Source: an uncultured Candidatus Saccharibacteria bacterium
Lineage (GTDB): Bacteria > Patescibacteriota > Minisyncoccia > Phycocordibacterales > 2-02-FULL-43-11
Assembly: GCA_964348785.1 (NCBI GenBank)
Contig: CAYGDO010000001.1
Coordinates: 120,369 to 184,368, forward strand
DNA: 64,000 bases
Direction of reading: 5' to 3'
Positions within the stretch are counted from its first letter, which is position 1. Every line of letters begins with the position of its first letter. Below the pieces are notes generated by a model. It did not search any database and was not told the origin of the DNA. It saw nothing but the letters and a program-made list of their open reading frames with translations. Below are positions 5,203-33,694 of the stretch, piece by piece. Position numbers and translations under genes: made by a program.

Positions 5203-5628
5203 TTAAAATGGCAAATCTTTACACAACCCATCAAACACCTCCCCATCAATTTTATTTGTAAGTATTTTTGAAACTTCCTTTCTATCCACCCATTTTGCCT
5301 CCGGATTATCAGAATCAATTGGCTTTAACTCGCCATCAAAATTAGTTCTAAATAAAAATAAAGTAATATCTTTTAGCTCAGAGTTATCATCGTTTTTATC
5401 TAAACCAATTTTATATCTCTTGTAAGTAACCAGAAATCTTACAAACTCTAACTCATTAACCCCTGATTCTTCGTAAACTTCTCTTTGGGCCGCTTCTAAA
5501 TCTGTCTCGCCTTCTTCCACCCCTCCTTTTGGTAAAGACCACGTATTGTGTCTTTGCGCGACAACAAGAATTTTACCCTCTTTGTTTATAACAACACCCC
5601 CCGCTTTTTTGATTTGCTTTGTTAGCAT
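5203..5628 (-). CDS. NUDIX hydrolase
   Basis: Nudix box GGVEEGETDLEAAQREVYEESGV (GX5EX7REUXEEXGU). Confidence 0.85.
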   Translation of the reverse strand: MLTKQIKKAGGVVINKEGKILVVAQRHNTWSLPKGGVEEGETDLEAAQREVYEESGVNELEFVRFLVTYKRYKIGLDKNDDNSELKDITLFLFRTNFDGELKPIDSDNPEAKWVDRKEVSKILTNKIDGEVFDGLCKDLPF

Positions 5629-5929: not shown

Positions 5930-6583
5930 ATGAACCAAGAAACAATGCCTCCTGAAATTAACAGCACTCTAGCCGGGGAAAGACCTGAGTTTGTTACAAA
6001 ATCCAAAAGAGACACCAAACTCTCATCCTCTATTGGTCTTTTAATATTTAGTATGATTTGGCTTGGATTTACCAGTATATTTGTTTTTGTTTTTTTTGGA
6101 CCACTATTAAGCGGGAAAGATGTAAATTTCACTGTAAATGGAACACCAACAACAGCCAACCTAAGCAATATGGGATCATTAACAATGCCAGGAATAATAA
6201 TTGGAATTTTTGTCCTTATTGGCATTTTTATATTCATCGCAAGTATTAGGTCACTATTTTCAAAAGGTAGTTGGTTTATTGGCACATCAAAAAGATTAAT
6301 TGTTTATAGAAAAAATTACACACAATCAATAGACTGGGAACAATTTTCCGGTAATATTATCGTCTCCGGCCCTTCAAACAACAACACAATATCTTTAGAA
6401 ATGAGAACCGGTCATATGGTTTCTCAAAAAAATCGTGCTGACAGATATGTCCCCGATATGATAGAAATGATAGGAATTAATAACGGCTTTGAAATAGAGC
6501 CCATTATCAGAAAAAGAATAAAAGAAAACGACCCAACTCCAGCACTTAACGAGAAAACTCCTTCTGCATTAATCTCAAATTAA
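5930..6583 (+). CDS. Hypothetical membrane protein (217 aa, 2 TM)
   Basis: ORF with two hydrophobic helices. No family match recognized. Confidence 0.5.
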   Translation: MNQETMPPEINSTLAGERPEFVTKSKRDTKLSSSIGLLIFSMIWLGFTSIFVFVFFGPLLSGKDVNFTVNGTPTTANLSNMGSLTMPGIIIGIFVLIGIFIFIASIRSLFSKGSWFIGTSKRLIVYRKNYTQSIDWEQFSGNIIVSGPSNNNTISLEMRTGHMVSQKNRADRYVPDMIEMIGINNGFEIEPIIRKRIKENDPTPALNEKTPSALISN

Positions 6584-12640: not shown

Positions 12641-13180
12641 TTATTTAACTTTCTCCAATAAAAGTTTTCTCAATTTATTTAAAGATTCATCAAATTCAAA
12701 TTTATTTTCAAATATTATATCCGCCTCATCAAGCTGATCAAATTCCTTTTTTAAAGATAGGTACATACCAAATGAATCCTTAAGGATATGTCCCTCCCTC
12801 TTATCTTTTTCAAGTCTTTCTTTGACAACATTCTCGTCTGCTTTTATCCATACCAATAAAATTTTATCCACATATTCACCAACTCCTTCAAACAAAAAAT
12901 TACGTAATGACTTTTTATGTAAAGTTTCGTCGACAATTATATTCTTATGCAAAACATAAATAGATTTTAAATCTAAAATTACTCTTTCAAAAACTTTCAT
13001 CCTCGTATCGTCAGAAAATGGAATGTTATTTTTAATATTATATTCAAAATTTGAATCTGTTGGGTAAATCTCTTTTTTTACAGCATCAACATCATAATAG
13101 AAAAAACCCAAATCCCTTGCTATAGCTTTAGCAAGAGAAGTTTTTCCAGTTCCTATCAAGCCCGCAAAAAATATGATCAT
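12641..13180 (-). CDS. P-loop NTPase / predicted kinase (AAA_33-like ATP-binding protein)
   Basis: Walker A motif GLIGTGKTS. Start moved to the internal Met (MIIFFAGLIGTGKTS) because the longer track ORF overlaps the tRNA-Phe 3' exon. Confidence 0.6.
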   Translation of the reverse strand: MIIFFAGLIGTGKTSLAKAIARDLGFFYYDVDAVKKEIYPTDSNFEYNIKNNIPFSDDTRMKVFERVILDLKSIYVLHKNIIVDETLHKKSLRNFLFEGVGEYVDKILLVWIKADENVVKERLEKDKREGHILKDSFGMYLSLKKEFDQLDEADIIFENKFEFDESLNKLRKLLLEKVK

Positions 13181-13186
13181 TTGTTG

Positions 13187-13492
13187 TGGTGCCGAGGGCC
13201 GGGCTCGAACCGGCGACCCCATGCTCTTCCGTATACATCAAATTATTTCAATATGATGCTTGGACTATCTCATTATCCTTTTGAAAGGATATCGGGCGCT
13301 AGTACAGGATTATTGTTGGGACTCACCTGTTAGTCTCTACACCTTCCAAGAAACTTTTAACCCTTCTTGGCTTGGCTCGGGATTGTCCATATTACTATGA
13401 GTTTTCCCCGAATTCACCCAATTTGCTTTACCTATTACTAGATAAAGGCCCGAAGATTCAGGCACATGCTCTACCAACTGAGCTACCTCGGC
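13187..13492 (-). tRNA. tRNA-Phe (anticodon GAA) interrupted by a group I intron. Exons about 13460-13492 and 13187-13229; CCA encoded.
   Basis: 5' exon GCCGAGGTAGCTCAGTTGGTAGAGCATGTGCCT and 3' exon GAAGAGCATGGGGTCGCCGGTTCGAGCCCGGCCCTCGGCACCA assemble into a canonical 76-nt tRNA-Phe with loop CUGAAGA, G37 and A73. Confidence 0.8.
13230..13459 (-). ncRNA. Group I intron (IC3-like, about 230 nt) in the anticodon loop of tRNA-Phe
   Basis: Contains the conserved IC3 core GGACAATCCCGAGCCAAGCC (like CAAUCCUGAGCCAAGCC in the cyanobacterial tRNA-Leu intron) and GGTGTAGAGACTAACAGG (like GUGUAGAGACUAGACGG in the Azoarcus tRNA-Ile intron). U at exon position -1 and G at the intron 3' end are consistent with group I splice sites. 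The exact boundary is ambiguous by 1-3 nt. Confidence 0.75.
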
Positions 13493-14975: not shown

Positions 14976-15221
14976 CTATTCTATGTTTAAAAGTTCTTTC
15001 AACCTGTCCTCATCAAAACCAACCACAACATTATCTTTTATTATCATGACGGGAACTCCCATTTGACCACTTTTTTCTACCATCTCCTTCCTCTTAGCTA
15101 AATCTTTTGAGACATCAAAATTTTCGTAAGTTACACCTTTTTCATCAAAAAAATCTTTTGCCATCTCGCAATACATACAAGTCGGAGTTGAATATATTTT
15201 CACCTGTGTTTCTTTTGTCAT
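14976..15221 (-). CDS. Glutaredoxin-like protein (NrdH/Grx family, CxxC = CMYC)
   Basis: 81 aa thioredoxin fold. KIYSTPTCMYCEMAKDFF, GVPVMII. Confidence 0.8.
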   Translation of the reverse strand: MTKETQVKIYSTPTCMYCEMAKDFFDEKGVTYENFDVSKDLAKRKEMVEKSGQMGVPVMIIKDNVVVGFDEDRLKELLNIE

Positions 15222-18183: not shown

Positions 18184-19875
18184 TTACAAACTCTGCCCTT
18201 CGACAAAATCAGAGCTAATAGTAGTAGGTTTTTTATGAAAAATCCTTTTTAATGACTGTATCGTTTCTTCTAAAATGCTACTTCTCAACAATTTCAAAAA
18301 GATAATCATTGTAAACAATCCTAAAAGTCCCGATAAAAATCCTTGAGCGAAGACTCCAAATGTCTTGTCTAAATTAAAGAAATTATCAAACAAATTTAAA
18401 GCTAAATATGTCACAAAGGCCCCAAATACTGAAGAACAAAAAGAATGAACAGTATTCGAAATCACATTTTTATCCCAACAAGGAATTTCTTTTTTAAATA
18501 AAAACCACAAAACAAAAACATTGAGTAAGGTTCCAAGTGTATAACCCAAAGGCAAGGTAATCATCTTAATACCCTCTAAATCAGAAATTCTTAACAAACT
18601 GCCAAGGAAAGACTCAACAAATAATGAGTGCTCAAAGATTTTCAAAAATAAAAATACAAAAACTGGAATCAGGATAGCACTTGAGACGTTTGTAAAAAGA
18701 GGAATGTAAGTTTTACCTCTAGCGTAATAAGCCCTGGTCAAGAGAATGCTCACACCTTGAGCAACAATAGACACCGAAAAAATAGCGAGCGTAGCAGCGG
18801 TCAGTCTGGTATCGTTCCAATCAAAATTACCAGAACCCAAAACAACTCTAACAATTTGGGCTCGTAAAACAATAAAAAGAGTTAAAAAGGGCATTGACCA
18901 AAAAATAATGTGGTTGATTGATGAACGTAATAATTCCAAAAATTTTAATTCATTTTTATCTTTAAAAAGTCTAGAAAGAGTTGGAAAAGCGGCCATTGAA
19001 TAACTAGCTCCAACTATAGCTAAAGGTACAGACTGCAAATTCCAGCCAAAATTAAAAACAGCAATTGCCCCAAAACCGATAGATGAAGCGATCGAAATTA
19101 AAACTATGGTTGATAAATTATTAGCTGACAAAGCTATGGTCCTTGGCAATGACAATCTAAACACTCGAAACACCTCAGCAAAATTAATTTTAGTAGTTAT
19201 TTTTGGCACCAAACCAATAGTAAATAAAGCTGGAAGTTGAACGAGAAAATGAAGAACCGCCCCAAGAACAATCCCCCACGCCAAACCCCAATCCCCTAAA
19301 CGGGGATAGAGAAAAATAATCCCAATAATAATGCCTAAATTGTAAAGTAGCGGTGACAATGCATAAACAAAAAATCGTCCTTTTGACTGTAAAATGCCAG
19401 AAACAAAATTGGATAATCCTAAAAATATAGGTTGCAAAAGCATGACTTTCGTAAATAAAATTGCATGTACGCCTCTTTGATCTAAGAAAAAATCCGGAAA
19501 CAAAAAAGAAACAATGTTTGGAGTCAGAAAAAAAATAATTAAACTACAGAGAAATAACAAAAAGAAAAAAACGGTAAAAATTGAGCTTAGAAATTTTTTT
19601 ACATCATCCTTACTTAAATTTTCCTTTTCAATGATGAAAGGAATGATTATAGACGCAGACACCAAAGAAGCTAGAGACACAAAAATCGTATCGGGTATTT
19701 TAAAAGAAGCATAATAAACATCAAGAAGTGGTCCAGTCCCAAAACTACCAGCCAAAATCCTATCCCTCAATATGGCAAGAATTTGAGATAAAAAAGTAAA
19801 AAAAGCTAAAAGATAGGCTATCTCGTGAAGACCGCCTATCTCTTTAGTCATTAGGGCAATAGCTTTTTTAACCAT
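18184..19875 (-). CDS. murJ: Lipid II flippase MurJ (MviN)
   Basis: 563 aa with about 14 TM helices and a MurJ-like N-terminus (AILRDRILAGSFGTGPLLDVYYASFKIPD). Confidence 0.9.
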   Translation of the reverse strand: MVKKAIALMTKEIGGLHEIAYLLAFFTFLSQILAILRDRILAGSFGTGPLLDVYYASFKIPDTIFVSLASLVSASIIIPFIIEKENLSKDDVKKFLSSIFTVFFFLLFLCSLIIFFLTPNIVSFLFPDFFLDQRGVHAILFTKVMLLQPIFLGLSNFVSGILQSKGRFFVYALSPLLYNLGIIIGIIFLYPRLGDWGLAWGIVLGAVLHFLVQLPALFTIGLVPKITTKINFAEVFRVFRLSLPRTIALSANNLSTIVLISIASSIGFGAIAVFNFGWNLQSVPLAIVGASYSMAAFPTLSRLFKDKNELKFLELLRSSINHIIFWSMPFLTLFIVLRAQIVRVVLGSGNFDWNDTRLTAATLAIFSVSIVAQGVSILLTRAYYARGKTYIPLFTNVSSAILIPVFVFLFLKIFEHSLFVESFLGSLLRISDLEGIKMITLPLGYTLGTLLNVFVLWFLFKKEIPCWDKNVISNTVHSFCSSVFGAFVTYLALNLFDNFFNLDKTFGVFAQGFLSGLLGLFTMIIFLKLLRSSILEETIQSLKRIFHKKPTTISSDFVEGQSL

Positions 19876-19889
19876 TTCCTCCTTTATTT

Positions 19890-22331
19890 TTATAAACCAG
19901 ACTCCCCATCCTCTTTCAAGGGTAAATTGCTTCTTTTAGCCGGCTGTTTATCCTTAACATTACTAAAAGGATCACGCCCAGCTTTTATATTTGAGAGAAT
20001 TGATTTCACTTCCTGACTATCGGGATTAAGAGTTTGTATCTGCTCAAATTGAGCGATGGCTTCCTTATTTCTGTTCAACTTTTCATAAGATAAACCAAGA
20101 AAATATTTGGCGTTAGAATAAACATTGTTTAAAGCCACCGCCTTTTCAAAAGCCACAACCGATCCTTTATAATCCTTGCTGTCAAACTTCAACAAACCAA
20201 GCTGAAAGAACGCCACCGGATCATTAGGAGAGAGCAAGGTGGCAGATTCTGCTGACTGTATGGCCTCCTTTGTATTCCCTTCTGAAGACTCAATTTGGGA
20301 CAAAAGAAACACTGCTTCGGTGTAATTTGGCTTCTTTGATAAAGCCATAGAAATTTGCTCCCTAGCCTTATCATTTTTCTTTGCAAGAACTTCTAAACGG
20401 GCCAACAAAAGGTGTACCCCAGGATTTTGAGGATTTAACGTAAGAGCGTTTTGAAAAGAACCGCTAGCTAATTGATAGGCATCTTTTATACCGTATTGAT
20501 AAACAACTCCGTACAAATTAGCCAAAGTTATATGATTCTCATAATTTGAGGAGTCAATATCAATAGATCTTTTAGCACTAGCTATAGTATTTGCCAAAAC
20601 ACTCTGAAATTGCTCTCGAAGTAATTCCAAATCTTCAGTAGAATTTTTAACTTCCGCTGTAGCAAGAATATTATTTATTCTAACCATGCCTATTTCAGTT
20701 AACGCTCTATAAAAAACATCCTGCTCATTCATACCTATTGCTCTGCTAACATAAGTTTCAGCGACATCAAGATTGCCAGTTGTTCTAAACTCCAAAAGCC
20801 CTTTTTGAAAAAGTAAATTAGCAGAATATCTTTTAACCAAAACAAAGCCCACCAAAACACAACTAACAGACAACACTATTATCAAAAACACCGCAACAAA
20901 ACTTTTTTTAGAATCACCTCTAAACTTAAACACAGTCACAGTTCCCTCTCCTAAATTAACGCAGGTGGCCAAAAATAATCCGGTAACCAAAAATGTTAGA
21001 TAAAAAACGGTGTTACTTGGCACATAAATAAAGTTCATTATCCACAAATACAAGGCGCTGACAAAGGAAGATAAGAGCAAGAATCTCTGATCCCAACCCG
21101 TTGATTCTTTAAATAAAAACTTTATACCAGTTTTTAGAAAGAAAAACAGGAACAAAATCCAAGCAATCAAACCTAAAATACCTGTAGTAACCAAATATGT
21201 TGGAATTAAACCGAAACCATAATTAAAATCCGTGTTCCAAAAAATACTTTGGTTTATAACTGGATCTTTATACAAAAGCCATTCATTAGTAAATCTATTT
21301 GGACCGGACCCAAGCAACAAATTTTGACCCAAACTCTTTGAAGCAACGGACAGAGTAGCTTTTAAATTAGGCCTAACTTCTAATTGGGAGATATTTAATT
21401 TATTAGCTATAAAATTTCCAAAATAAGAACCGAAAATTACAAACAGTGCACAAATTACAACACTAATCGTTGAAAAAATAGGAAATCTTTTTTTCGAAGA
21501 GGAAACCTCTTGATCCCCGTCTCCCTCTTCTTCCACAGCGTCATGTGATTTATTTCTAGAAAAAGAAAAAATGTAAACACCTATAGCTAAAGAAAACAGC
21601 CCGAGTACCGTCCAAGCCAGAGAAAAATTAACTATCACCATCAAAGCCAGAGAAAGGCCGAACACTGAGTAAGTAACAATTTTTAATAATTTAGAAAGGT
21701 GTAAAAATTCACCTGCAATTATGGAGAACAGGGCAACCAAACCAAACACTATTCCCAAGTCATACCATTTTCCAATTAAATTTGACGTGGTACTTTGGAA
21801 AACTCCAAAAGATAAAAAGTCAGCCCCAAAAATTAATCTTGATATCTGATATATGGCAACCAAAGCAAAAGATAAAACTAGAGCAAGATAAGCATAAAAA
21901 ACTTTATCCTTAGTATTAAAATAAAAAGGAACTATCCATATAGTCAAAACACCAACTATGAGTGATATGGTCGTACCGACTTCAAAACCTTGACCAAAAA
22001 ATGAAGCAGAAAAATTACCAGAAGCCAAAGAAGACAAAAAGGCCGAGAAAGCCACAGCAAGAGAAGCCCACAGAAAATGACTTTTCTGAAAAACAACTTC
22101 ACCCTTTTTCAGACTGGACACCAACCAAACCAAAGTAGCCAATATAATCACTAAAGCAAATAATATTTGCTTATTAAATAAAAAATTAGAATATTGAATA
22201 GGTAAATTAAAAATAGGCAAAAGGAACGAGACCAGTAACATTAACCAAAAAACTAATCTTGGGAATAAACCCTCACCTTTTAAACCGACACTATTCTCAG
22301 CGATTTCTTCATTGATTTTAATATCTTGCAT
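19890..22331 (-). CDS. O-antigen ligase/polymerase-like integral membrane protein with C-terminal TPR repeats
   Basis: 813 aa. The N-terminal two-thirds is poly-topic membrane. The C-terminal third has several TPR-like repeats (AYQLASGSFQNALTLNPQN..., AVALNNVYSNAKYFLGLSY...). Confidence 0.55.
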   Translation of the reverse strand: MQDIKINEEIAENSVGLKGEGLFPRLVFWLMLLVSFLLPIFNLPIQYSNFLFNKQILFALVIILATLVWLVSSLKKGEVVFQKSHFLWASLAVAFSAFLSSLASGNFSASFFGQGFEVGTTISLIVGVLTIWIVPFYFNTKDKVFYAYLALVLSFALVAIYQISRLIFGADFLSFGVFQSTTSNLIGKWYDLGIVFGLVALFSIIAGEFLHLSKLLKIVTYSVFGLSLALMVIVNFSLAWTVLGLFSLAIGVYIFSFSRNKSHDAVEEEGDGDQEVSSSKKRFPIFSTISVVICALFVIFGSYFGNFIANKLNISQLEVRPNLKATLSVASKSLGQNLLLGSGPNRFTNEWLLYKDPVINQSIFWNTDFNYGFGLIPTYLVTTGILGLIAWILFLFFFLKTGIKFLFKESTGWDQRFLLLSSFVSALYLWIMNFIYVPSNTVFYLTFLVTGLFLATCVNLGEGTVTVFKFRGDSKKSFVAVFLIIVLSVSCVLVGFVLVKRYSANLLFQKGLLEFRTTGNLDVAETYVSRAIGMNEQDVFYRALTEIGMVRINNILATAEVKNSTEDLELLREQFQSVLANTIASAKRSIDIDSSNYENHITLANLYGVVYQYGIKDAYQLASGSFQNALTLNPQNPGVHLLLARLEVLAKKNDKAREQISMALSKKPNYTEAVFLLSQIESSEGNTKEAIQSAESATLLSPNDPVAFFQLGLLKFDSKDYKGSVVAFEKAVALNNVYSNAKYFLGLSYEKLNRNKEAIAQFEQIQTLNPDSQEVKSILSNIKAGRDPFSNVKDKQPAKRSNLPLKEDGESGL

Positions 22332-22927: not shown

Positions 22928-25273
22928 CTAGACGGCTACCTCACAAACACCCGCAGCACAAGCAAGTTCTTTTTTGACCTCTGTCTCATCTTGCTTTTCA
23001 TATGTAATAATTTTTGAATAATCAATATGTTCAAATCTTTTTACCATTTCCATATAAGTCTTTTCATCAATCGCCTCATAAGGTGCCAACTTATAGACAT
23101 GCTTCTCTCTTGGTAAAAATGAAAGTCCTCCGATCATTTCCCAATTGCTGTAAACCCAATTGGCAACAGCAATCCATTCATCGTCCCCAACAGAAACAGT
23201 AACCGAAGGATTATGCTCAGTGTAATTTTTCTTTACCAATTTCCAATACTCTAATTGCTCTATGGCAGACAAATCATCACGATAGATAGAACCGCCTGGA
23301 GCTTTGACTGGAAATTCCAAAACGTAAGTGGTTGCACTCTCTGGATTTTGACCCACTTCTGGGTTAAAAGGCACTCCCTGATCCTTTAACATTTTAAACA
23401 AAGAATCTGTGGCCCCAATACGAACACGGCGAATATAATAAGGGGCGTGACGAGCATGCATACCGCTTGAACAATCAACCATCTGTGACAAAGTTCCAGA
23501 AGGTTTTACACATGTAATGGCTGAAGATTCTGACACGCCTAAACGTTTAGCATAAATCTTATTTACTCTAATCGCTTCCAATCTCAACTTGTTCAAAACT
23601 TCTGGTTTTCTCAATTCAGGACTATCCCACTGCCCTGTAATAGAAACCCCGAGCAATCTTTCTTTTTCACAGTGTTCTTTCCACTGTTTTGAAAGATAAG
23701 GGAAATTTGTAAGAGAAGATTGATAAGTGCCTACAATGGTAGCCAATCTAATTTTTCTCTTCAATGAATCAAGGGTGTCCTCTTTTCTAGCCACAACTTC
23801 TGATAAATTACAAAATTGTTTTGATTGAAGAATAATTTCTCCACAAGGATTAGTACCGATTGAACCAGTGATCTTTGTACCAGTGGCATCAAAAAAATCT
23901 CTCAAAATTTTCAATCTTCTTTCTGGTAATTGTTTTGCTAATGATCCTCTGTTAAAAATTCCTCTTTCACCTGATCCGGAATTCATAAGAGCGGTCCATT
24001 CATTCAAAAATTCAACATTTGAAGGCTTATCAATATAAACAGCGGAATTATTTGCCAACATTCTTTGGGGTTCGTTGGTATAAAATTGCCCCTTCTTTGA
24101 GTCACGAATCTGTTCATCGTCAAAATCAGAAAGAGAAATCATAGCGCTCCTTCTTACACCTCCAGCCACCACACAATCACCAACCATACAAATCATATCG
24201 TGAACATCAAGATTAGAAAGTCTTCTACCTTGCTTTGCCAACATTTTTTGTCTAGTTGAATCAAGCAATCTTCGAAGAGGTTCTGGACCAGACGCTTTAC
24301 CGCCCATTACTTTCAAACGAGCGCCTGCTGGTCTTATTTGCGAATAATCAAATTGAACATCCGCACCATTTGCCCAAGTTTCCATGCCCAAAATAAAAGC
24401 GTCACACCAACCCTCCTTGCTATCTGGAATCAAAAAAACTTCTGGTTTCTTACCATTCTGCATTTTTATCTGAGGTAATTTTTGAACATTCTGACTTTCC
24501 ACACTCCACCCCGCACCAGTTCCACACATAGAGATATACATTATCTCCGCTATATCTCTAAAAGATTCTGGAGCGATGTAAGAACAGTTATAAGCACAAA
24601 CATTTGTTACTCTTGCAGCATTACCAGAAAACTGAAGAAGCCTCATTGAAGGCATAGCTTCCATATTCAATATTCCCTCTCTAACTTCTTTATATTCTGA
24701 CTCTTTTAATTTTTTTCCTAAATTTTCTCTCATAAAGGAAACATACCTATCAACCGTCTCAATCCATGTTTCTCTTCTACCTTCCTCAGCAATCCAACGA
24801 GAATATGTTCTGTAGTAAATAAACTCTCCTAGAGGATTTTTAAAATACTGCTTGCTGTCAGTGGCCATTTTTCTCACTTTTTCTGGCACCATCATTCCTT
24901 TTTCACGAAGTTTGGCCCTTCTTTCTCTATATAAAATATAGGATTTAGCGGTTTTAACATATCCTGACAAAATCAACTCTGATTCAACAGAATCTTGAAT
25001 GCCTTCAACGGTCGGTACAAAATTTTTATGATGTTTTGCCACTCTTACTAGTTCAGCTAACACCTTGTTGGCCACCAATCCCGCCTCTTCTTCACTTCCT
25101 TCCTTAGTTTGAATCATCGCTTTGTATATTGCAGTCTTAACCCTAGCAATATCAAACTCGACAACCGAGCCATCTCTTTTCAAGACCTTTTTTACAAAAC
25201 TACTAACCTTTGAACTTTTTTCATCCTTTCCCATATTTTTTCTGAAAAATATTTTTAATGTTGTTAAATACAA
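22928..25273 (-). CDS. nrdJ: Ribonucleotide reductase, class II-like, with an N-terminal ATP-cone
   Basis: ATP-cone (VLKRDGSVVEFDIARVKTAIYKAM), active-site NPCGEI, and a C-terminal Cys pair (CAAGVCE). 781 aa. The start may instead be an internal Met (MGKDEK). Confidence 0.8.
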   Translation of the reverse strand: MYLTTLKIFFRKNMGKDEKSSKVSSFVKKVLKRDGSVVEFDIARVKTAIYKAMIQTKEGSEEEAGLVANKVLAELVRVAKHHKNFVPTVEGIQDSVESELILSGYVKTAKSYILYRERRAKLREKGMMVPEKVRKMATDSKQYFKNPLGEFIYYRTYSRWIAEEGRRETWIETVDRYVSFMRENLGKKLKESEYKEVREGILNMEAMPSMRLLQFSGNAARVTNVCAYNCSYIAPESFRDIAEIMYISMCGTGAGWSVESQNVQKLPQIKMQNGKKPEVFLIPDSKEGWCDAFILGMETWANGADVQFDYSQIRPAGARLKVMGGKASGPEPLRRLLDSTRQKMLAKQGRRLSNLDVHDMICMVGDCVVAGGVRRSAMISLSDFDDEQIRDSKKGQFYTNEPQRMLANNSAVYIDKPSNVEFLNEWTALMNSGSGERGIFNRGSLAKQLPERRLKILRDFFDATGTKITGSIGTNPCGEIILQSKQFCNLSEVVARKEDTLDSLKRKIRLATIVGTYQSSLTNFPYLSKQWKEHCEKERLLGVSITGQWDSPELRKPEVLNKLRLEAIRVNKIYAKRLGVSESSAITCVKPSGTLSQMVDCSSGMHARHAPYYIRRVRIGATDSLFKMLKDQGVPFNPEVGQNPESATTYVLEFPVKAPGGSIYRDDLSAIEQLEYWKLVKKNYTEHNPSVTVSVGDDEWIAVANWVYSNWEMIGGLSFLPREKHVYKLAPYEAIDEKTYMEMVKRFEHIDYSKIITYEKQDETEVKKELACAAGVCEVAV

Positions 25274-25396
25274 TTTTACATCAGTTAAGTTGAAGTGGGA
25301 AAGATTTTATCCATTTTTTACGAACTTAAAAATAAAAAAAAAGAGGTGTAAACCCCGACCCCAATTTGTTTTTGAAAAACCTCACTATTTGAGGAT

Positions 25397-26651: not shown

Positions 26652-27998
26652 TTAGAGCAGATTCGCCGCGAGCTCAGCGAGCTCGGAACGTTCACCTTTG
26701 GCGAGATGAACGTGAGCCGCCAGTGGTTGCCCGCGCATCCGATCGACGAGGTAAACGAAACCGTTCGAGCTTGAGTCAACGTACGGGTTGTCAATCTGCC
26801 ACGGATCACCCGTGAAGACAATCTTGGTCCCCTGTCCCACTCGAGTGACGATCGTCTTCACCTCGAGCGGTGTAAGGTTCTGGGCTTCGTCGATGACTAT
26901 GAACTGGCCAGGAATTGACCGACCCCGAATGTAGCTCAGTGCCTCAACCACGATTGTGCCGTTGCGCATAAGATCGGCAGGCTTACGCCCACCACCAGCC
27001 CCCATGTTGAGATCCCCGAGGAACTCAAGTGCATCGTGGATGGGTTGCATCCACGGCGCCAGTTTTTCCTCGAGAGTCCCCGGAAGAAACCCGATCTCTT
27101 TACCCATCGAGATCGTCGGACGAGCGACAAGCACCCGCCGATAATTTCCCGTGCCACCATCAACACCTTTGGCCTGATGAAGCCCTCCCGCGAGAGCCAA
27201 CAAGGTCTTACCCGTACCGGCCTTACCGAGAAGTGTCACCAACTTGACACGGTCGTCGAGAAGAGCGTCGAAGGCGAAGCGTTGCTCAGGATTGCGAGGA
27301 TCAATGCCCCAGACACTTTCTTTTATATCCCTAATGGGGACCAATCGACCTTCAGTATCAACCTTGGCCAACCGGTATTTATCCCCATCAGAAATGCGGC
27401 AGTACTCTCCGATTCCATGGCCAGACGGAGCTTCCATCTTGCCAGTTCTGTTGAACCGTGCGAGCTCAGCGGACTCAACCGTCATATTGAACGCGCCACT
27501 GTAAAGCGCCGAGAGCTCCACCCGGTCAGTTCTGTAGTCTTCAGACTGGATACCGATTGAGTCAGCACGGAGACGAAGGTTCACGTCCTTTGTGACGATG
27601 ACAAGAATCACACCTGGCTCCGCCGACTTGATTTGCCCTGCTCGGCGAAGAATCATCGAATCAACGTGGCCATTACCGTTACCGTTATGACCAACGTGTT
27701 CGCTGTCGCCGTTTGCCTTTTCGCCAAGAACAATCCGGAACCGTCCCCCACCAGGAAGCGTGTGTCCCACGTGGAGTTTACTTCCGGAGGCCCGCCATCC
27801 GTCGAGAATTCTCGAGACCGCCCGAGCGTTCCGTCCCAACTCATTGGACTCTCGCTTGAAATGATCAAGTTCCTCGATGACCTCGATCGGAATGAGGACG
27901 TTGTGTTCTTGGAAACTGACCAAAGCATTCGGGTCGTGAAGGAGAACATTTGTGTCGAGCAAGTAGTTCTTCCTCGTGCCTGCTGCTACATCTTTCAT
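26652..27998 (-). CDS. PIN-domain plus PhoH-like ATPase (PhoH2/YlaK family)
   Basis: N-terminal PIN (LLDTNVLLHDP...IPIEVIEELD) and C-terminal PhoH P-loop (LLGKAGTGKTLLALA). GC about 58% against about 34% for the genome, indicating foreign origin. Confidence 0.9.
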   Translation of the reverse strand: MKDVAAGTRKNYLLDTNVLLHDPNALVSFQEHNVLIPIEVIEELDHFKRESNELGRNARAVSRILDGWRASGSKLHVGHTLPGGGRFRIVLGEKANGDSEHVGHNGNGNGHVDSMILRRAGQIKSAEPGVILVIVTKDVNLRLRADSIGIQSEDYRTDRVELSALYSGAFNMTVESAELARFNRTGKMEAPSGHGIGEYCRISDGDKYRLAKVDTEGRLVPIRDIKESVWGIDPRNPEQRFAFDALLDDRVKLVTLLGKAGTGKTLLALAGGLHQAKGVDGGTGNYRRVLVARPTISMGKEIGFLPGTLEEKLAPWMQPIHDALEFLGDLNMGAGGGRKPADLMRNGTIVVEALSYIRGRSIPGQFIVIDEAQNLTPLEVKTIVTRVGQGTKIVFTGDPWQIDNPYVDSSSNGFVYLVDRMRGQPLAAHVHLAKGERSELAELAANLL

Positions 27999-28566: not shown

Positions 28567-28654
28567 GGAGGGTTCGCATAGTGGCCTAGTGCGCACGCTT
28601 GGAAAGCGTGTATGTCGAAAGGCATCGGGAGTTCGAATCTCCCACCCTCCGCCA
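28567..28654 (+). tRNA. tRNA-Ser (anticodon GGA), long variable arm, CCA encoded
   Basis: GGAGGGTTCGCATAGTGGCCTAGTGCGCACGCTTGGAAAGCGTG...GGGAGTTCGAATCTCCCACCCTCCGCCA. Confidence 0.9.
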
Positions 28655-28798: not shown

Positions 28799-29425
28799 CT
28801 ATTTACTATCAATCCATTTCACCCCAACTTTTTCAAACTGCGTTTTTAAATCTTTTTTCACTTCTTCTAAAAAGTCTTTGAGTTCTGGAAAATGATGGGT
28901 GGCTTCATCGAACGCCACCACTGCCTTGGTCGCATAGTCAGCATGAAATTCTTTTGGAACGTACGCCTCCACTCCTACTTCAGCTATATGAAGAAACCCT
29001 TCAATCTTATCTAATGCCTTCACGAACTTCGCCTCAATAGTTATCTGATCTTCATACTCGCGCCACAAGGCATAAATCCAATCCCCAAAAGGTAGGTCAT
29101 CTGTCATTTCGTGCATGGCTTTTTCTTCCATAACAGCCTTCTCTTCAATTAACTTTTTGCCTTCTAAAATCTGTTCATACGCATCAACGTCACCGGTCTT
29201 CGCTTCAGCTAAGTCGTGCAATAACGCAAGAGCGAGCGTACGATTAATATCTATTCGCACCCGAGATTCAGTTCCAATAATCAACGCCATAAGTCCCAAT
29301 CTCCAAGAGTGTTCAGCGACCGTGTTTTTATTAGCACGCATAGATGAGCCGTATCGCTCGGCTTGTTCTAAGGCTTTACTCCTTTTCAAAAACAAAAGTA
29401 CGTCGTGAATTTTTTGCTGTCTCAT
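28799..29425 (-). CDS. HD-domain 5'-deoxynucleotidase (YfbR-like, HD_3), paralog 1
   Basis: AEHSWRLG ... LLHDLAEAKTGD metal-binding H/HD motifs. 208 aa. About 50% identical to paralog 2. Confidence 0.8.
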   Translation of the reverse strand: MRQQKIHDVLLFLKRSKALEQAERYGSSMRANKNTVAEHSWRLGLMALIIGTESRVRIDINRTLALALLHDLAEAKTGDVDAYEQILEGKKLIEEKAVMEEKAMHEMTDDLPFGDWIYALWREYEDQITIEAKFVKALDKIEGFLHIAEVGVEAYVPKEFHADYATKAVVAFDEATHHFPELKDFLEEVKKDLKTQFEKVGVKWIDSK

Positions 29426-29448
29426 GTTATGTAAAAAGTTTTTTCTTA

Positions 29449-29775
29449 TTAAGAATGCGATTCGTTCATTTTATCCCAATCCCATTTTCGGTCTTTGTTG
29501 TATGCAAGCTTGTCTAAAATAGCTCCTTCCAGATCTACGCCAAGTACTCCACAAAGATGGAGAATTCTTTGAACGGCATCGCCCATTTCTTCTGTAAAAC
29601 CATCCTTTGCGTGTATGTTTTTATGGCGGTATGCCTCAAAAGCTTCTGACACCTCCGAGTGTATTAGAGCAATTTTTTCTCCGACATTAATTTCTTCGGG
29701 TTTTGTTCCGAATCCTTTTGCTTTCGCTTGCCCCATGACAAGAATCGAAATGTGTTCCAAAGTCAATTTTTCCAT
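29449..29775 (-). CDS. MazG-like nucleoside triphosphate pyrophosphohydrolase (small single-domain type)
   Basis: EVSEAFEAYRHK and EEMGD motifs of the MazG/NTP-PPase all-alpha fold. Start taken at the internal Met (MEKLTLEH). Confidence 0.75.
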   Translation of the reverse strand: MEKLTLEHISILVMGQAKAKGFGTKPEEINVGEKIALIHSEVSEAFEAYRHKNIHAKDGFTEEMGDAVQRILHLCGVLGVDLEGAILDKLAYNKDRKWDWDKMNESHS

Positions 29776-29878
29776 CTTTAAATTGTAACACAAAATAAAA
29801 CACATGGGACATTTCTGCTCATGTGTGTGACGTCTTTCGCAAGGAACGAGGGCCTAGTTTTGCCCATACCCACGACAG

Positions 29879-30097
29879 TTATGATTGGAAAACCATTATC
29901 GAATCGACTTTCTGTTTATCAACTATTGCAGCTATCATCTCTTTCTCACCCACAACATGAAAAAAGATAAGATTTTCACCGTTGTCCTCTATTCGAGTGA
30001 CCTTGGGAATCCGCAAACCAACGGTACCGCCTGGAACTACATAACGACGGTCGTACATGACATCGAAGGTCTGCGCATCTCCTTGATATTCTTTCAT
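29879..30097 (-). CDS. Hypothetical 72-aa protein, possibly an AbrB/MazE-like swapped-hairpin domain
   Basis: GTVGLRIPKVTRIEDNGENLIF resembles the xVRIPxxxxxxL motif of MazE/AbrB. Lies between an HD gene and the MazG-like gene. The assignment is weak. Confidence 0.3.
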   Translation of the reverse strand: MKEYQGDAQTFDVMYDRRYVVPGGTVGLRIPKVTRIEDNGENLIFFHVVGEKEMIAAIVDKQKVDSIMVFQS

Positions 30098-30231
30098 ATC
30101 TTTGTTTCTTATTAGCTATCTCCAGCGTGAATTTAGCCAGCCTATTTTTGAATGCACCCGACAGGTAAGGTTAGGGTTCCGAGCATCTATATGGACTATA
30201 GGGTTTAGTATAAAAAATTCAATTAAGGCTT

Positions 30232-30260
30232 GGGTAGTTTGTAAATCTTTAATTTACAAT
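30232..30260. repeat. Palindromic 27-bp element ggtagtTTGTAAATctttaATTTACAA, copy 1 (copy 2 at 32436-32465)
   Basis: 27/28-nt identity between the two copies. Each contains the inverted repeat TTGTAAAT/ATTTACAA. Copy 1 overlaps the last four codons of HD paralog 2. Copy 2 lies in the promoter region of the TrmB-like gene. Confidence 0.6.
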
Positions 30261-30872
30261 GTATTTCACCCCCACTTTTTCAAACTGTGTTTTCAAATCT
30301 TTTTTAATCAGATTAAGTAAATCTTTTACCTCAGGAACATTTTGTACCGCTTGGTCAAAAGCTAATACTGCTCTATCTACATAATATCCATGAAATTCTT
30401 TAGGAATATAAGCTTTTACACCCCGGTCGGCAATATGAATATAAGCTTCTATGCCGTCTAAAGCCGCCACAAATTTGGCTTCTAGGGTTTTATGATCCTC
30501 GTATTCATTCCACAAATCAAATATCTCTTTGCCAAAAGATAAATCTCGAGTTATAGCTTTCATAGCTAGTTTTTCTTTTTTATATTTATCTTGAATTAAC
30601 TTTCTTCCTTTAAGAATTTGCTCATAAGCGTCAATGTCGCCCGTCACTGACTCGGCGAGGTCGTGAATAAGGGCGAGCGCCATAGCGTGACTCAAATCAA
30701 TTTTTAGATTGCATTCTTTGGCAATAATAAAAACCATAAGAGTCAATTGCCATGAATGCTCCGCTGTGGTGTCACCATTCTTGCTAAGTGAATAACCATA
30801 TCTAGGGACAGATTTCAACTGGTTGCTACGTTGCAGAAATGTGAAGATATCTTTTACTTTTTGTTCTTTCAT
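30249..30872 (-). CDS. HD-domain 5'-deoxynucleotidase (YfbR-like), paralog 2
   Basis: AEHSWQLT ... LIHDLAESVTGD motifs. The 3' about 55 nt are nearly identical to the 3' end of paralog 1 (…DLKTQFEKVGVK[W/Y]I). Confidence 0.8.
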   Translation of the reverse strand: MKEQKVKDIFTFLQRSNQLKSVPRYGYSLSKNGDTTAEHSWQLTLMVFIIAKECNLKIDLSHAMALALIHDLAESVTGDIDAYEQILKGRKLIQDKYKKEKLAMKAITRDLSFGKEIFDLWNEYEDHKTLEAKFVAALDGIEAYIHIADRGVKAYIPKEFHGYYVDRAVLAFDQAVQNVPEVKDLLNLIKKDLKTQFEKVGVKYIVN

Positions 30873-30978
30873 ATATTTTATTTTTTATTCATATGAGTGC
30901 ACAAATTTCTTTCTGCGCTCGTATAAATGGCCGTCAGTCGCGAGATTGCTCTCGCAACGACGGCCGATGATTTCAAAA

Positions 30979-32268
30979 CTACCTGCTCAACTTCAACTGC
31001 GCGGCGTCCCTCGCTTCGAAGTGACGCATTGCGGTCTCAATGCACCGACGGAACGACAGTCCGTAAGTGATTGGGGCCAAGGGCCCCCACACGATCGGGT
31101 CCGCCGCGGCGTGGCGGAATATCTGCTGAAGGATGGTCGGCGGAAGTTTCCGCCGTAACGGGCTGTTTGGATCCGCCAGAGCCAACAACAGGTCTTCATC
31201 GTTAGTGGGTCTTTCGTTTTCTGGGATGTCCTTCCACGCGTGCTCCATGGCTCGCGCGAAACGTCTGTCCCATGTGCTGACCAGTTGACCGTGTGTGGGG
31301 GCGAAGCCAGCGATTCCGCCATGCTGAACTATTCCCACCCCGAAGGCGAACTCGGAAGAAAACTCCCCGCCTTTTCTGCGCTCAGCGCGGGTGAGTCCTT
31401 GTAGGATATTTCTCAGCATGTAGACAACTCGCATGAACATGTCGAGCTGGTCTGTTGAGACCCTCCGAACCTCCTGCCAGTATTCTTCCTCCTCCGTGGG
31501 GTACTTATTTTGGCGCTTCTTCATGTTAGCTACGCCCGCAGCGGGAGGACGGTTCTTGCAAGCGCAAGGGCCGTAATTGCAGTACAGGCACCTGAATATT
31601 TCGCGAGGTCCCGATGATGTGCCAATCACCTCTGCCGGTCGTCCGTACTTGTACGTCGCGCACAGGACGAGCATGTCGAGTGGAACCTGGACATTCTCGG
31701 GCAACGATTCGTTCACTGCAAAGACGGAGAACATCTCATAGAGATAAACTTTCCCGAAGAGGTACTCCATCTCTTCGAGCACAGCCGAGTCAACGCGAGA
31801 TTCGTCACGCCACGTTGTTATCTCTCGGGAGAACGCTTGCGCATTCAACTGGGCGGTTGAGTCCGGTTTTTCACCCAACAGCAACTGAACGAGATTGAAG
31901 CCGGTTGTGAAAACTTCCTGCCTCCCGAGCAATATAAGCTGGGAAGGGTCAACCCTATCTGTTGCGCGCTTCTTCCGCGCCATCGTCCCTTTCAGCTCGC
32001 GGAATTCCAACTCGACCTGCGCCTCCACACTGCCACGTTGCAGATGCGTAGCATTCCGCCAAAACGCTTCTTCAGCGTCTTGCATCGAGGGGGTGAAGCC
32101 GGCGATCACCCCATGAAATCTTGCGTCACGATCGACCTGCTCTTCGAGTCCCGAGCGTGCCTGGTTGGCTTTCCCGATCAGTGTTTCTGAGTCCCGCGAC
32201 CCAGTCCAACGTTTCCACAGTTCGTAGATTCGAAGGATCATATCGTAAAGCGACTCTGTATTCTTCAT
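30979..32268 (-). CDS. Hypothetical 429-aa protein in a strongly GC-rich (about 60%) insert, with an internal duplication and a Cys cluster
   Basis: Long ORF confined to the GC-rich patch. Repeated modules FHGVIAGFTPS... and QHGGIAGFAPTHG.... CLYCNYGPCAC (CxxCx4CxC). GC hairpin ggccgtcagtcgcgagattgctctcgcaacgacggcc just past the stop. No family recognized. Confidence 0.5.
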   Translation of the reverse strand: MKNTESLYDMILRIYELWKRWTGSRDSETLIGKANQARSGLEEQVDRDARFHGVIAGFTPSMQDAEEAFWRNATHLQRGSVEAQVELEFRELKGTMARKKRATDRVDPSQLILLGRQEVFTTGFNLVQLLLGEKPDSTAQLNAQAFSREITTWRDESRVDSAVLEEMEYLFGKVYLYEMFSVFAVNESLPENVQVPLDMLVLCATYKYGRPAEVIGTSSGPREIFRCLYCNYGPCACKNRPPAAGVANMKKRQNKYPTEEEEYWQEVRRVSTDQLDMFMRVVYMLRNILQGLTRAERRKGGEFSSEFAFGVGIVQHGGIAGFAPTHGQLVSTWDRRFARAMEHAWKDIPENERPTNDEDLLLALADPNSPLRRKLPPTILQQIFRHAAADPIVWGPLAPITYGLSFRRCIETAMRHFEARDAAQLKLSR

Positions 32269-32478
32269 GGTTGCTCCTAGACGGTATCGTCAAGCCAATC
32301 TTGTGCCGGCTTGTTTTGTTTACGTCAAAGAACCTTGTCAATTCATCCACCTGCCTAAAAGACAGACAGATCGGACATCAGTTCTTGACACCCATGTGAA
32401 ATATAGTGTATAATATAAAAAGGTCAATTGAGACATAGGTAGTTTGTAAATCTTCAATTTACAACTTTTTTAACACAT

Positions 32479-33282
32479 ATGAGCAAAAGACAAAAAAACA
32501 ATATAACAAAAACGCTGGAAGAACTAGGCTTAAGTGAAAACGAAGCGGTACTTTATCATATCTGTTTGAAGTATCCTCAAAGCACCGTAAAAGAATTGGG
32601 GGCGTATTCTCCATTCCCCCGCACAATGCTGTACCATGTGTTGAACCAGCTTATCAGACGAGGGCTCGTGTCAACTTCTACTGATAAATGGCGCACTGTA
32701 TACATTTCAGAAAGCCCTGAACGGCTTTATGATTTGCTAGCACAAAAAGAAAAAGAGTTTGAAAAACAAGCTCACTCAATTCGTGGACTTATCCCACAAT
32801 TAAAAAATAGATATTCGCTTTCCATCCAACAACCCAGCGTACGTATTTTTGAAGGAATCGAAGAATACAAAAAGGCAATGGAGGACATTATAATCTCTAA
32901 ACCTGAAGTAGTATTCGCTTACGAAACTCCTGGAAAACAAAAACCTGGCCTGGAAATGAGAGAGCTCCACGAAGCTAGACGTATCGCTAAAAAAATCAAG
33001 AAAAAAACTCTGTTCTTTGAAAGTGCAGAGGCACTTAAGAAAATCTCCAAAGTGCCCTACAGTGACTTTACGGAATGGAGAAGCACCAAGAGACCTAGTG
33101 AAAATTTTAATGTAGATTTTATGCTCTACGATGGTAAAATACTCTATACCAATTACAGCAAGCACGAGCCAAAGACTATCTTGATAGAAGACAGCTTACT
33201 GTATGAAATGCAAAAAAATATTTTTCTTGCACAATGGAAAGAAGGAAAACGCGAAACTCTGTCTTACTTAAAACAAAAATAA
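32479..33282 (+). CDS. TrmB-like winged-helix transcriptional regulator
   Basis: N-terminal wHTH (LGLSENEAVLYHICLKYPQSTVKELGAYSPFPRTMLYHVLNQLIRRGLV) with a C-terminal effector-like domain. Palindrome copy 2 lies 14-40 nt upstream. Confidence 0.6.
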   Translation: MSKRQKNNITKTLEELGLSENEAVLYHICLKYPQSTVKELGAYSPFPRTMLYHVLNQLIRRGLVSTSTDKWRTVYISESPERLYDLLAQKEKEFEKQAHSIRGLIPQLKNRYSLSIQQPSVRIFEGIEEYKKAMEDIIISKPEVVFAYETPGKQKPGLEMRELHEARRIAKKIKKKTLFFESAEALKKISKVPYSDFTEWRSTKRPSENFNVDFMLYDGKILYTNYSKHEPKTILIEDSLLYEMQKNIFLAQWKEGKRETLSYLKQK

Positions 33283-33283
33283 A

Positions 33284-33694
33284 ATGAACATATACTTTAT
33301 TGGGTCCATTTTAGGAGGACGAATCAATCAATCACAATATAGAGAGGTAATTGAAATTCTCAAACAACACGGAAATGTCTTATCCGAACACATTGCGGAC
33401 GAATCTCTTTCAGAATACGGAGAGACTGATTTAGAAAAAGAAGAAATTCACGATCGCGAACTTAAAAGACTAGAAAAAAGCGACTTAGTAGTGGCTGAAA
33501 TTACAACGCCAAGTCTTGGTGTGGGATATCTTATCGCAGAAGCTTTGCGTTTAAATAAAAGGATTATCGCTCTCTATAATGGAGAAGACACTCTGAAACT
33601 TTCAGCAATGATAAAGGGGAATAAAAAAACAAAAGTGCACTTGTATAAGACAAGAGATGACATCAACAGAATATTTACATCTCTCTTAAATTAA
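33284..33694 (+). CDS. 2'-deoxynucleoside 5'-phosphate N-hydrolase (DNPH1/Rcl family; nucleoside 2-deoxyribosyltransferase-like fold)
   Basis: MNIYFIGSILGGR, VVAEITTPSLGVGYLIAEA and LSAMIKG closely parallel DNPH1 (YFCGSIRGGR, VVAEVTQPSLGVGYELG, LSAMIRG). Confidence 0.8.
   Translation: MNIYFIGSILGGRINQSQYREVIEILKQHGNVLSEHIADESLSEYGETDLEKEEIHDRELKRLEKSDLVVAEITTPSLGVGYLIAEALRLNKRIIALYNGEDTLKLSAMIKGNKKTKVHLYKTRDDINRIFTSLLN

Follow-up and report, generated by a model that had tools for sequence, protein, structure and literature searches.

Whether the nucleotide-metabolizing genes that lie together at positions 28799-33694 of a 64-kb stretch of Candidatus Saccharibacteria DNA (contig CAYGDO010000001.1; the whole stretch is called the window here) answer to a regulator of their own, and what such control would serve, is the question that this locus raises. 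Control of the deoxynucleotide pool is central for reduced-genome symbionts that live on scavenged nucleotides, and the Patescibacteria (the candidate phyla radiation, CPR), most of them uncultured, account for a large share of bacterial diversity, and their transcriptional regulation is almost unstudied. An earlier note on this DNA had proposed a deoxynucleotide salvage module or, instead, an anti-phage system, with a palindrome as the operator of a putative dedicated regulator. Seven open reading frames (ORFs) occupy the interval (Table 1), and proteins of the window were compared with the Pfam, NCBIfam, PHROGs and PADLOC profile libraries. We consider it likely that the interval exemplifies a control unit, conserved in the Patescibacteria, that serves deoxynucleotide housekeeping. 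The core of this unit would be a two-gene operon with an operator in front, encoding a regulator of TrmBL2 architecture and a DNPH1-like protein that would bind deoxynucleoside monophosphates (dNMPs). Enzymes of the nucleotide pool would be transcribed divergently from the shared control region, and in the window these would be two HD-domain proteins, HD1 and HD2, and a MazG-like protein.

The palindrome TTGTAAATCTT[T/C]AATTTACAA occurs exactly at 30239-30259 (copy A) and 32444-32464 (copy B) and nowhere else in the window. The pattern TGTAAAT-N5-ATTTACA was found twice against an expectation of 0.11, and for the 19-nt core with at most one mismatch the expectation is 0.04. It had been described as a 27-bp palindrome upstream of both transcription units; the two copies and their positions stand, but the palindromic part measures 21 bp (8-5-8, with the consensus tTGTAAAt-N5-aTTTACAa). 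We gathered loci of the regulator in relatives, 9 from a genome collection, 38 from a metagenome collection and more by exact-protein look-ups (cited below by our numbers, L004 and so on), and took as the footprint sample the 36 non-redundant loci in which 60 nt or more precede the regulator gene. A palindrome was present no more than 140 nt upstream of the TrmB-like start codon in all 36, and in 33 of them it carried at most two mismatches, with centres mostly between -11 and -54. The invariant core is TGTAAA-N7-TTTACA, its positions G-T-A-A-A / T-T-T-A-C-A being the same throughout; the 5-nt spacer is unconstrained, and compensatory changes across the relatives were not seen. In the first ten relatives' loci, 13 sites with at most two mismatches were counted in 116.7 kb, where 0.45 would be expected. 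As a phylogenetic footprint this is strong, and conservation of this kind is the signature of a protein-binding operator; it also bears out the proposal that the palindrome is an operator defining a small regulon which includes the regulator itself. The regulator-operator pair is immediately testable, with a consensus drawn from 33 genomes. Sites with three mismatches are no commoner in the window than chance predicts (12 found, 13.6 expected). One of these, TGTTAAATACAATTTTACA at 25262-25280, sits at the start of a class II ribonucleotide reductase (RNR) gene, and we rejected it as a link of RNR to the regulon because such sites occur at chance frequency.

The palindrome might also be read as a structural element, an intrinsic terminator or an RNA hairpin, in which case the genes would be clustered without common regulation, and the earlier note had allowed for a generic terminator. 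Copy A indeed shares bases with the HD2 stop codon, CTTTTTT comes after copy B, and the copy of L009 also stands directly after an HD stop codon. As RNA, however, the palindrome would form an AT-only stem of merely -4.4 to -5.1 kcal/mol, the terminator scan did not report it, and Rfam gave no match. The T-run varies among relatives, while the bases of the palindrome are invariant over 33 genomes without covariation, that is, sequence is conserved rather than structure, and in all relatives the site precedes a gene start, not gene ends. We find the structural reading scarcely credible.

It had escaped the earlier note that each palindrome is part of a promoter-operator module present in duplicate. 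The two lie in an 86-nt direct repeat (30184-30269 and 32389-32474, 78% identical), and from its sequence the module is about 90 nt long and consists of two overlapping divergent promoters, as predicted, and the operator. In copy B a predicted promoter toward the TrmB-like gene, P(+), reads TTGACA-18-TATAAT (32385-32414) and matches the sigma-70 consensus at 12 of 12 positions, and it is overlapped by a predicted promoter P(-), TTGACC-16-TATATT (32427..32400), which faces X429, the gene of an orphan protein described below. Copy A has a predicted minus-strand promoter in the same register (TTGAAT-16-TATAGT, 30222..30195), pointing to the 72-aa ORF, MazG and HD1, and its plus-strand promoter has decayed. 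At these predicted positions the palindrome would cover about +23 to +43 of P(+) and be centred near -61 of P(-). The module is conserved, with E-values of 1e-16 to 1e-23, in the window, L025, L008, L011, L022, L023 and L053. Extra copies, one in the window (copy A), two in L025 and one in L008, always have the orientation of the regulator gene and stand before successive minus-strand genes. The regulator of L025 is 87% identical to that of the window, and different genes follow its three module copies; in general the genes behind extra copies vary by genome, are orphan, and are rich in G+C at third codon positions (GC3) compared with their hosts. We noticed that in the internal copies of L025 (163-251 and 821-911) and L008 (4749-4841) a near-consensus P(+) runs antisense into the adjacent minus-strand cargo gene, which hints at antisense transcription or promoter competition in the control logic. 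If the predictions hold, the module would be a compact switch, two overlapping divergent promoters with one operator, copied before successive genes.

The gene order around the regulator was compared next to the operator, since the earlier note had named co-conservation in relatives as its check. All named records are Patescibacteria (Saccharibacteria, Parcubacteria, Uhrbacteria, Nomurabacteria and Magasanikbacteria), and in 29 of the 30 loci that have downstream sequence (L014 counted by hand) a DNPH1-like gene comes directly after the TrmB-like one. On the upstream side, 25 loci offered at least 1.5 kb, and there we found HD genes in 18, dUTPase in 8, MazG in 6, dCMP deaminase in 4, an AAA_18 kinase in 3 and ThyA/DHFR in 2, which bears out the co-conservation. 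One Magasanikbacteria genome has the series HD, X, HD, dCMP deaminase, kinase, dUTPase, ThyA, DHFR and Tmk, with the ribosomal protein genes L11/L1 on the other side, as in several loci, and pyrB/pyrI/pyrC beyond. Judged from gene content, housekeeping in the pyrimidine branch of deoxynucleotide metabolism fits the cluster better than defence does. In L004, a Magasanikbacteria locus, aspartate carbamoyltransferase PyrB/PyrI and dihydroorotase are encoded at 18584-21356, a few kb from the cluster. Because this relative carries de novo pyrimidine genes, the premise of the earlier note that CPR organisms lack de novo nucleotide synthesis is unsafe and does not hold in general. A gene with the 5-hydroxymethyl-deoxyuridine (5-hmdU) DNA kinase helical domain (PF18723) adjoins HD in L012 (1343-2218, E 9.1e-46), L036 (1178-1981) and L056 (608-1474). 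This neighbour is a possible link to the metabolism of modified pyrimidines, the monophosphate of 5-hmdU (hmdUMP) being the preferred substrate of DNPH1.

The regulator, 267 amino acids long, matches PF01978 over residues 13-75 (E 4.8e-12, 46.0 bits against a cut-off of 25.6), in agreement with the TrmB-like winged helix-turn-helix regulator described earlier. Its AlphaFold2 (AF2) model, built from 55 homologues (pLDDT 86.9), has a winged helix-turn-helix domain, a long helix at 82-115 and an alpha/beta C-terminal domain. In Foldseek the full-length model found TrmBL2 (5bpd, E 2.1e-14) and TrmB (3qph, 5e-10), and the C-terminal domain alone found the nucleases Nuc, NucT and Zucchini of the phospholipase D (PLD) fold. 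The HKD motif is absent from the sequence, and by its model the domain is PLD-like and non-catalytic. The NCBIfam equivalogs for TrmB and TrmBL1 were reached with only 26.7 and 24.5 bits (cut-offs 600 and 650), and in the N-terminal part only. On the modelled structure the protein has the TrmBL2 architecture, without the sugar-binding effector subdomain of TrmB (267 against about 340 aa). Full-length relatives form at least 138 clusters, annotated solely as 'HTH domain-containing' or 'TrmB', and a search for literature naming both TrmB and Patescibacteria returned no paper. TrmBL2 (TK0471/PF0496), the best structural match, shares the order of winged helix-turn-helix, coiled-coil helix and PLD-like domain, the near-equal length (264 aa) and the lack of an effector-binding subdomain; it is, however, an abundant and largely sequence-independent chromatin protein, while the regulator studied here has a sharply conserved specific site by its own gene.

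A closer functional likeness is offered by TrmBL1/Tgr, which belongs to the TrmB family and binds the Thermococcales glycolytic motif (TGM, TATCAC-N5-GTGATA), an inverted repeat also with a 5-nt spacer. A TGM site downstream of a promoter represses and one upstream activates (PMC4158304). In the present module the site lies downstream of the predicted P(+) and upstream of the predicted P(-), and autoregulation is likely. On the other hand, TrmBL1/Tgr is archaeal, has a sugar-binding effector subdomain and governs sugar metabolism, whereas here the host is bacterial, the half-site is TGTAAA, the effector subdomain is missing, the targets would be deoxynucleotide genes, and a DNPH1-like partner gene is present.

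The DNPH1-like gene begins 1 nt after the regulator gene and on this spacing is translationally coupled to it. Its product matches PF05014 (E 7.2e-09, 36.2 bits against a cut-off of 28.8), and its closest solved relatives are Rcl/DNPH1 chains (E 1.8e-24 to 7e-23). We aligned it with 9 orthologues and with rat Rcl, in a sequence whose active-site stretch agrees with the PDB alignment. In human DNPH1, Y24, D80 and the nucleophile E104 act with the assistance of E55/H56 (PMC10603095). The phosphate-binding motifs GSI(L/R)GGR, PSLG and LSAMI are kept, as are Tyr or Phe at the position of Y24 and the SEH motif containing E55/H56, and the D80 position is an invariant Glu. The position of the nucleophile (human E104, rat E93) is occupied by Leu in the window and by Leu, Phe or Thr in the 9 orthologues, and in these 10 sequences no conserved acidic residue lies near it. 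The earlier assignment as a DNPH1/Rcl dNMP N-glycosidase was therefore right as to family and doubtful as to activity: the protein resembles the hmdUMP hydrolase in its phosphate motifs, Tyr and Glu-His pair, but differs in that the nucleophile Glu is gone from 10/10 Patescibacteria orthologues and the gene always stands in an operon with a transcription factor. The alignment suggests either a remodelled chemistry or dNMP binding without hydrolysis. Because the protein is strictly coupled to a regulator without an obvious effector domain, a role as its sensor partner is plausible, and a DNPH1-like clade without the nucleophile, operon-linked to a transcription factor, would be of interest as a possible ligand-sensing partner.

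Both HD paralogues proposed earlier as 5'-deoxynucleotidases were recovered by Pfam. HD1 matches HD_3 with E 8.5e-29 (101 bits) and YfbR-like with E 3.5e-12 (46.8 bits), HD2 matches them with E 1.9e-30 (106 bits) and 44.7 bits, and the two are 57% identical. The H...HD...D metal site is present in both (AEHSW, (L/I)HDLAE, ALD(K/G)IE), and the solved structures nearest to HD1 are human HDDC2 (4dmb, E 1.4e-16) and yeast YGL101W. HD1 shares 89-92% identity with its counterparts in L008 and L011 and is by this measure orthologous to the HD gene that is conserved among the relatives, while HD2 is about 57% identical to all other HDs and has host-like base composition (GC3 0.31). Since the two proteins score only 28.7 and 30.0 bits against the YfbR equivalog NF003009, whose cut-off is 122, they belong to a subfamily distinct from that equivalog. 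With E. coli YfbR, HDDC2 and YGL101W they share the HD_3 and YfbR-like domains, the metal site and a length of about 200 aa, and differ from them in that two paralogues occur, one per transcription unit; their substrate would be a dNMP by this likeness. The terminal 49 nt of HD1 and HD2 (28810-28858 and 30257-30305) are 90% identical though the proteins are 57% identical, and this identity, at 3' ends close by module copy A, is suggestive of gene conversion or of a recombination junction.

The third enzyme, the putative MazG-like pyrophosphatase, matches PHROG 'pyrophosphatase' families (1.2e-19 and 4.1e-19) and has acidic ExxE/EExxD motifs (SEVSEAFE, EEMGD), though without any Pfam match; NCBIfam and the solved structures also gave none. 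Its gene probably starts at M11, in agreement with relatives, and the protein is 73-86% identical to those encoded beside HD in L008, L009 and L016. The small ORF of 72 aa fared differently. It had been called MazE/AbrB-like, but no SpoVT/AbrB or MazE match, nor any other family, was found in Pfam (E <= 0.01), NCBIfam, PHROGs or PADLOC, and it is a singleton cluster with no homologue among the related loci, so that we dropped this identity. A 72-aa ORF beside the X homologue of L017 is unrelated to it.

How the unit might work can be sketched from these observations. The two overlapping divergent promoters would be mutually exclusive. By analogy with TrmBL1/Tgr, which represses or activates at TGM according to position, a regulator dimer on the operator would block P(+), giving autorepression, and would thereby free or stimulate P(-). 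Duplication of the module would have given two minus-strand units, each with its own operator and promoter, namely X429-HD2 and 72-aa ORF-MazG-HD1. The signal would probably be a deoxynucleotide, likely a pyrimidine dNMP, sensed either by the PLD-like domain of the regulator or by the DNPH1-like protein, in which the phosphate and base pocket is preserved but not the nucleophile. As to chemistry, the MazG-like protein would convert (deoxy)nucleoside triphosphates to monophosphates and the HDs would release deoxynucleoside from dNMP; that the DNPH1-like protein splits dNMP into base and deoxyribose 5-phosphate is doubtful. Thus, of the route from deoxynucleoside triphosphate (dNTP) through dNMP to base and deoxyribose 5-phosphate that had been proposed earlier, the enzymes are there and the DNPH1 step is weakened by the replacement of the nucleophile Glu in 10/10 sequences. 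In relatives, dUTPase, dCMP deaminase, kinases and ThyA/DHFR/Tmk would join the divergently transcribed enzymes. Bacterial NrdR offers a precedent for a repressor devoted to dNTP-metabolism genes and acting at conserved palindromic boxes before them. That protein is of an unrelated family (Zn-ribbon and ATP-cone), and here the class II RNR lies 7 kb off without a significant operator copy.

Several points weigh against this account. P(+) and P(-) are consensus matches only, and the antisense P(+) of the internal copies in L025 and L008 is not explained by the simple model. The variable GC-rich orphans behind extra module copies look unlike housekeeping genes, and the 72-aa ORF may be no gene. 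The DNPH1-like protein may still be catalytic through a remodelled site, with Glu throughout for the general-acid Asp. TrmBL2, the nearest structural relative of the regulator, has no known effector, and control by a ligand is not assured. Moreover, the window has no additional operator copy that would bring the RNR, glutaredoxin or NUDIX genes into the regulon.

A quarter of the interval is occupied by a minus-strand ORF which the earlier note overlooked, X429, encoding 429 amino acids. None of the four profile libraries matches it. Only two other clusters of homologues were found in 5.8e9 proteins, and a profile scan of 1.84e9 representatives added two more, which brings the family to about five clusters. 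All members with flanking DNA lie between divergent TrmB-like and HD genes (the window, L004/L005, L006, L017-L020 and L045). L012 encodes a distant relative of 392 aa at the corresponding position (hhalign E 1.2e-4, with KYG and CxxCx4CxC shared), and the ORF that L029 has there is in turn weakly related to that of L012 (29% identity). The AF2 model of X429 (pLDDT 81.9, pTM 0.85) is all-alpha with one beta-hairpin, after which come the conserved Cys227/235/237 and RPP, and Foldseek found no match to the fold in PDB or BFVD. An AGGAG Shine-Dalgarno sequence precedes the ATG, and the ratio of nonsynonymous to synonymous divergence (dN/dS), 0.16-0.21, indicates that the gene is under purifying selection. 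Several candidate relatives were rejected: P0006 and P0007 are both HAMP-repeat proteins, kinship with the 5-hmdU-kinase helical domain of L012 had an hhalign probability of 0.05%, and the cargo ORFs of L008 have no similarity to X429.

The composition of the gene is foreign in every host. Its GC content is 0.56, and its GC3 is 0.66 in the window, where host genes have 0.30; the corresponding values are 0.86 and 0.51 in L004, 0.92 and 0.45 in L006, and 0.84 and 0.32 in L017. In the window the GC-rich block extends from about 30900 to about 32390, includes the GC-rich hairpin of Table 1, which lies shortly past the 3' end of X429 and marks the lower limit of the block, and stops at the edge of module B. 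A chimeric assembly was rejected as the cause of this island, identical junctions being present in independent Logan and ENA assemblies. The X genes of L004 and L006 are 76% identical with a synonymous divergence (dS) of 0.78, while that of the flanking regulator and HD genes is saturated; this comparison therefore indicates that X was horizontally exchanged into the same locus. Neither a donor lineage nor a different genomic context for X is visible. It is, then, a family with a confident model and an unmatched fold, found at this locus only, and one that moves horizontally. In L017, GC-rich hairpin-like repeats at 6080-6135 and 6400-6460 (GGACGGCCCCC...CCGTCC, then T-rich) flank a small ORF 3' of the X homologue, and they resemble the GC hairpin after X429 in the window.

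Within the proposed control unit, X429 would be a horizontally exchanged accessory gene placed under module control. In the simplest history, an ancestor with HD1-MazG, the module and TrmB-DNPH1-like would have gained X429, perhaps with HD2, and the second module copy, and the direct repeats around the insert fit recombination within the module, though no recombinase is present. These same features invite another reading, in which the palindrome and its module of about 90 nt are mainly a recombination or docking site for swapped foreign cassettes, among them X429 together with its GC hairpin and orphan ORFs in L025, L008, L011 and L012, and transcriptional control is secondary. Module direct repeats flank X429-HD2 as they would after a single-crossover integration, the GC-rich block stops exactly at module B, the copies all share one orientation, and the cargo is orphan, rich in third-position GC, different even in close relatives (L025, with its 87% identical regulator) and, in the case of L004 and L006, transferred into the same locus. 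But ordinary homologous recombination between conserved flanks gives the same pattern, and no integrase, Xer-like protein, transposase or other recombinase was found within or beside the locus, either in the window or in L001-L017. The palindrome, moreover, is single-copy and at a fixed short distance from the regulator in most genomes, cargo-free ones included, and the module can be fully explained as two promoters and an operator. The locus resembles integron cassette arrays and pdif modules in its serial, same-orientation imperfect palindromes between variable, horizontally acquired ORFs, and differs from them in having no integrase or Xer nearby, promoter-operator modules in place of attC or dif, and one to three copies only. 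We regard the docking-site reading as improbable; it is compatible with the operator reading and does not exclude it. An extension of the operator reading seems to us unlikely as well: that the TrmB-like and DNPH1-like proteins form a two-protein deoxynucleotide sensor, with the latter, its nucleophile gone, as the subunit that binds the ligand; that the module is also a landing pad at which GC-rich orphans, the X family and others, are captured time and again by horizontal transfer and come under nucleotide-dependent control; and that X429 is an enzyme or effector of new fold acting on (modified) deoxynucleotides or DNA, its GC-richness, in hosts with GC3 of 0.30-0.51, being kept for function and not a transient mark of import.

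The variable orphans also bear on the second proposal of the earlier note, an anti-phage system of the MazG/HD type that would deplete or poison the dNTP pool, with the orphans as sensors or effectors. Horizontally transferred genes of foreign composition in mid-locus would suit such a system, and members of the MazG and HD families are met with in conflicts between phage and host (PHROG matches). Near the locus, a Tad4-like domain (Thoeris inhibitor family, E 2.8e-09) is encoded between dUTPase and HD in L016 (4662-5342; also in L054), and an Apyc1-like metallo-beta-lactamase hydrolase with a 'Bact_hydrolase' lies downstream of the operon in L014 (1556-3086). PADLOC, however, fitted no defence-system model to any enzyme or cargo protein among the 18 scanned, its sole match being a weak one of Csa3 (E 3.2e-05) to the DNA-binding domain of the regulator, and it matched none of 10 cargo ORFs of relatives. 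The HDs are monophosphatases of about 207 aa of the YfbR/HDDC2 type, not the large dGTPase/SAMHD1-type triphosphohydrolases of defence. Searches of 2.9 million IMG/VR viral contigs and 50,697 GenBank phage records gave no relative of either X or the regulator, on which ground a prophage or viral origin was also rejected. The locus, furthermore, occurs in at least 36 Patescibacteria beside ribosomal-protein (L11/L1) and thymidylate-synthesis genes (ThyA, DHFR, Tmk). Combined together, these results make a defence function very improbable, and deoxynucleotide housekeeping under the TrmB-like regulator remains the reading that we prefer.

Table 1. Features of the interval and its edge, with positions in the window
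Feature	Position	Strand	Basis
tRNA-Ser(GGA), adjoins HD1 at cluster edge	28567..28654	+	
HD1, putative HD_3/YfbR-like (HDDC2-type) 5'-(deoxy)nucleotidase	28799..29425	-	Pfam, identity to relatives
MazG-like all-alpha NTP pyrophosphatase (putative)	29449..29775 (ORF to 29805)	-	PHROG, motifs
72-aa ORF of doubtful status, in 'cargo' position behind module copy A	29879..30097	-	no profile matches
Module copy A, predicted promoter-operator module	30174..30261	+	nhmmer E 1.7e-20, repeat, promoter scan
HD2, divergent HD_3/YfbR-like paralogue	30249..30872	-	Pfam, identity matrix
GC-rich hairpin, GGCCGTC...GACGGCC with inner GCGAGA/TCTCGC stem	30929..30965	.	read from sequence, GC profile
X429, orphan 429-aa protein	30979..32268	-	cluster searches, AF2, Foldseek
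Module copy B, two predicted promoters and operator	32378..32468	+	nhmmer E 4.4e-22, promoter scan
TrmB-family regulator, 267 aa	32479..33282	+	PF01978, AF2, Foldseek
DNPH1/Rcl-like protein	33284..33694	+	PF05014, Rcl/DNPH1 matches

The wider window was inspected for the nucleotide genes that had been reported near the cluster. A class II RNR with an ATP-cone (22928-25273) and a glutaredoxin-like ORF (14976-15221), described earlier as NrdH-like, are indeed there. TrxB was not found by motif, and the sole NUDIX-box ORF of the window (5203-5628, minus strand) is 23 kb from the cluster and has no operator copy, so that these two could not be upheld as neighbours. An AAA_18/dNK-like kinase ORF (12641-13222, minus strand) lies 16 kb from the cluster, likewise without an operator copy, and tblastn found no further thymidylate-branch genes in the window. 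The only Rfam match of the window was the tRNA-Ser gene beside HD1, and tRNA genes are common integration points. A PhoH2 gene at 26652-27998 (minus strand), with PIN and PhoH domains (NCBIfam RNA 5'-3' helicase PhoH2, 255 bits), forms a second sharp GC island, with GC 0.55 and GC3 0.59 against about 0.30 in its neighbours and with edges that coincide with the ORF ends; lying 3 kb from the cluster, it resembles another gene of foreign composition.

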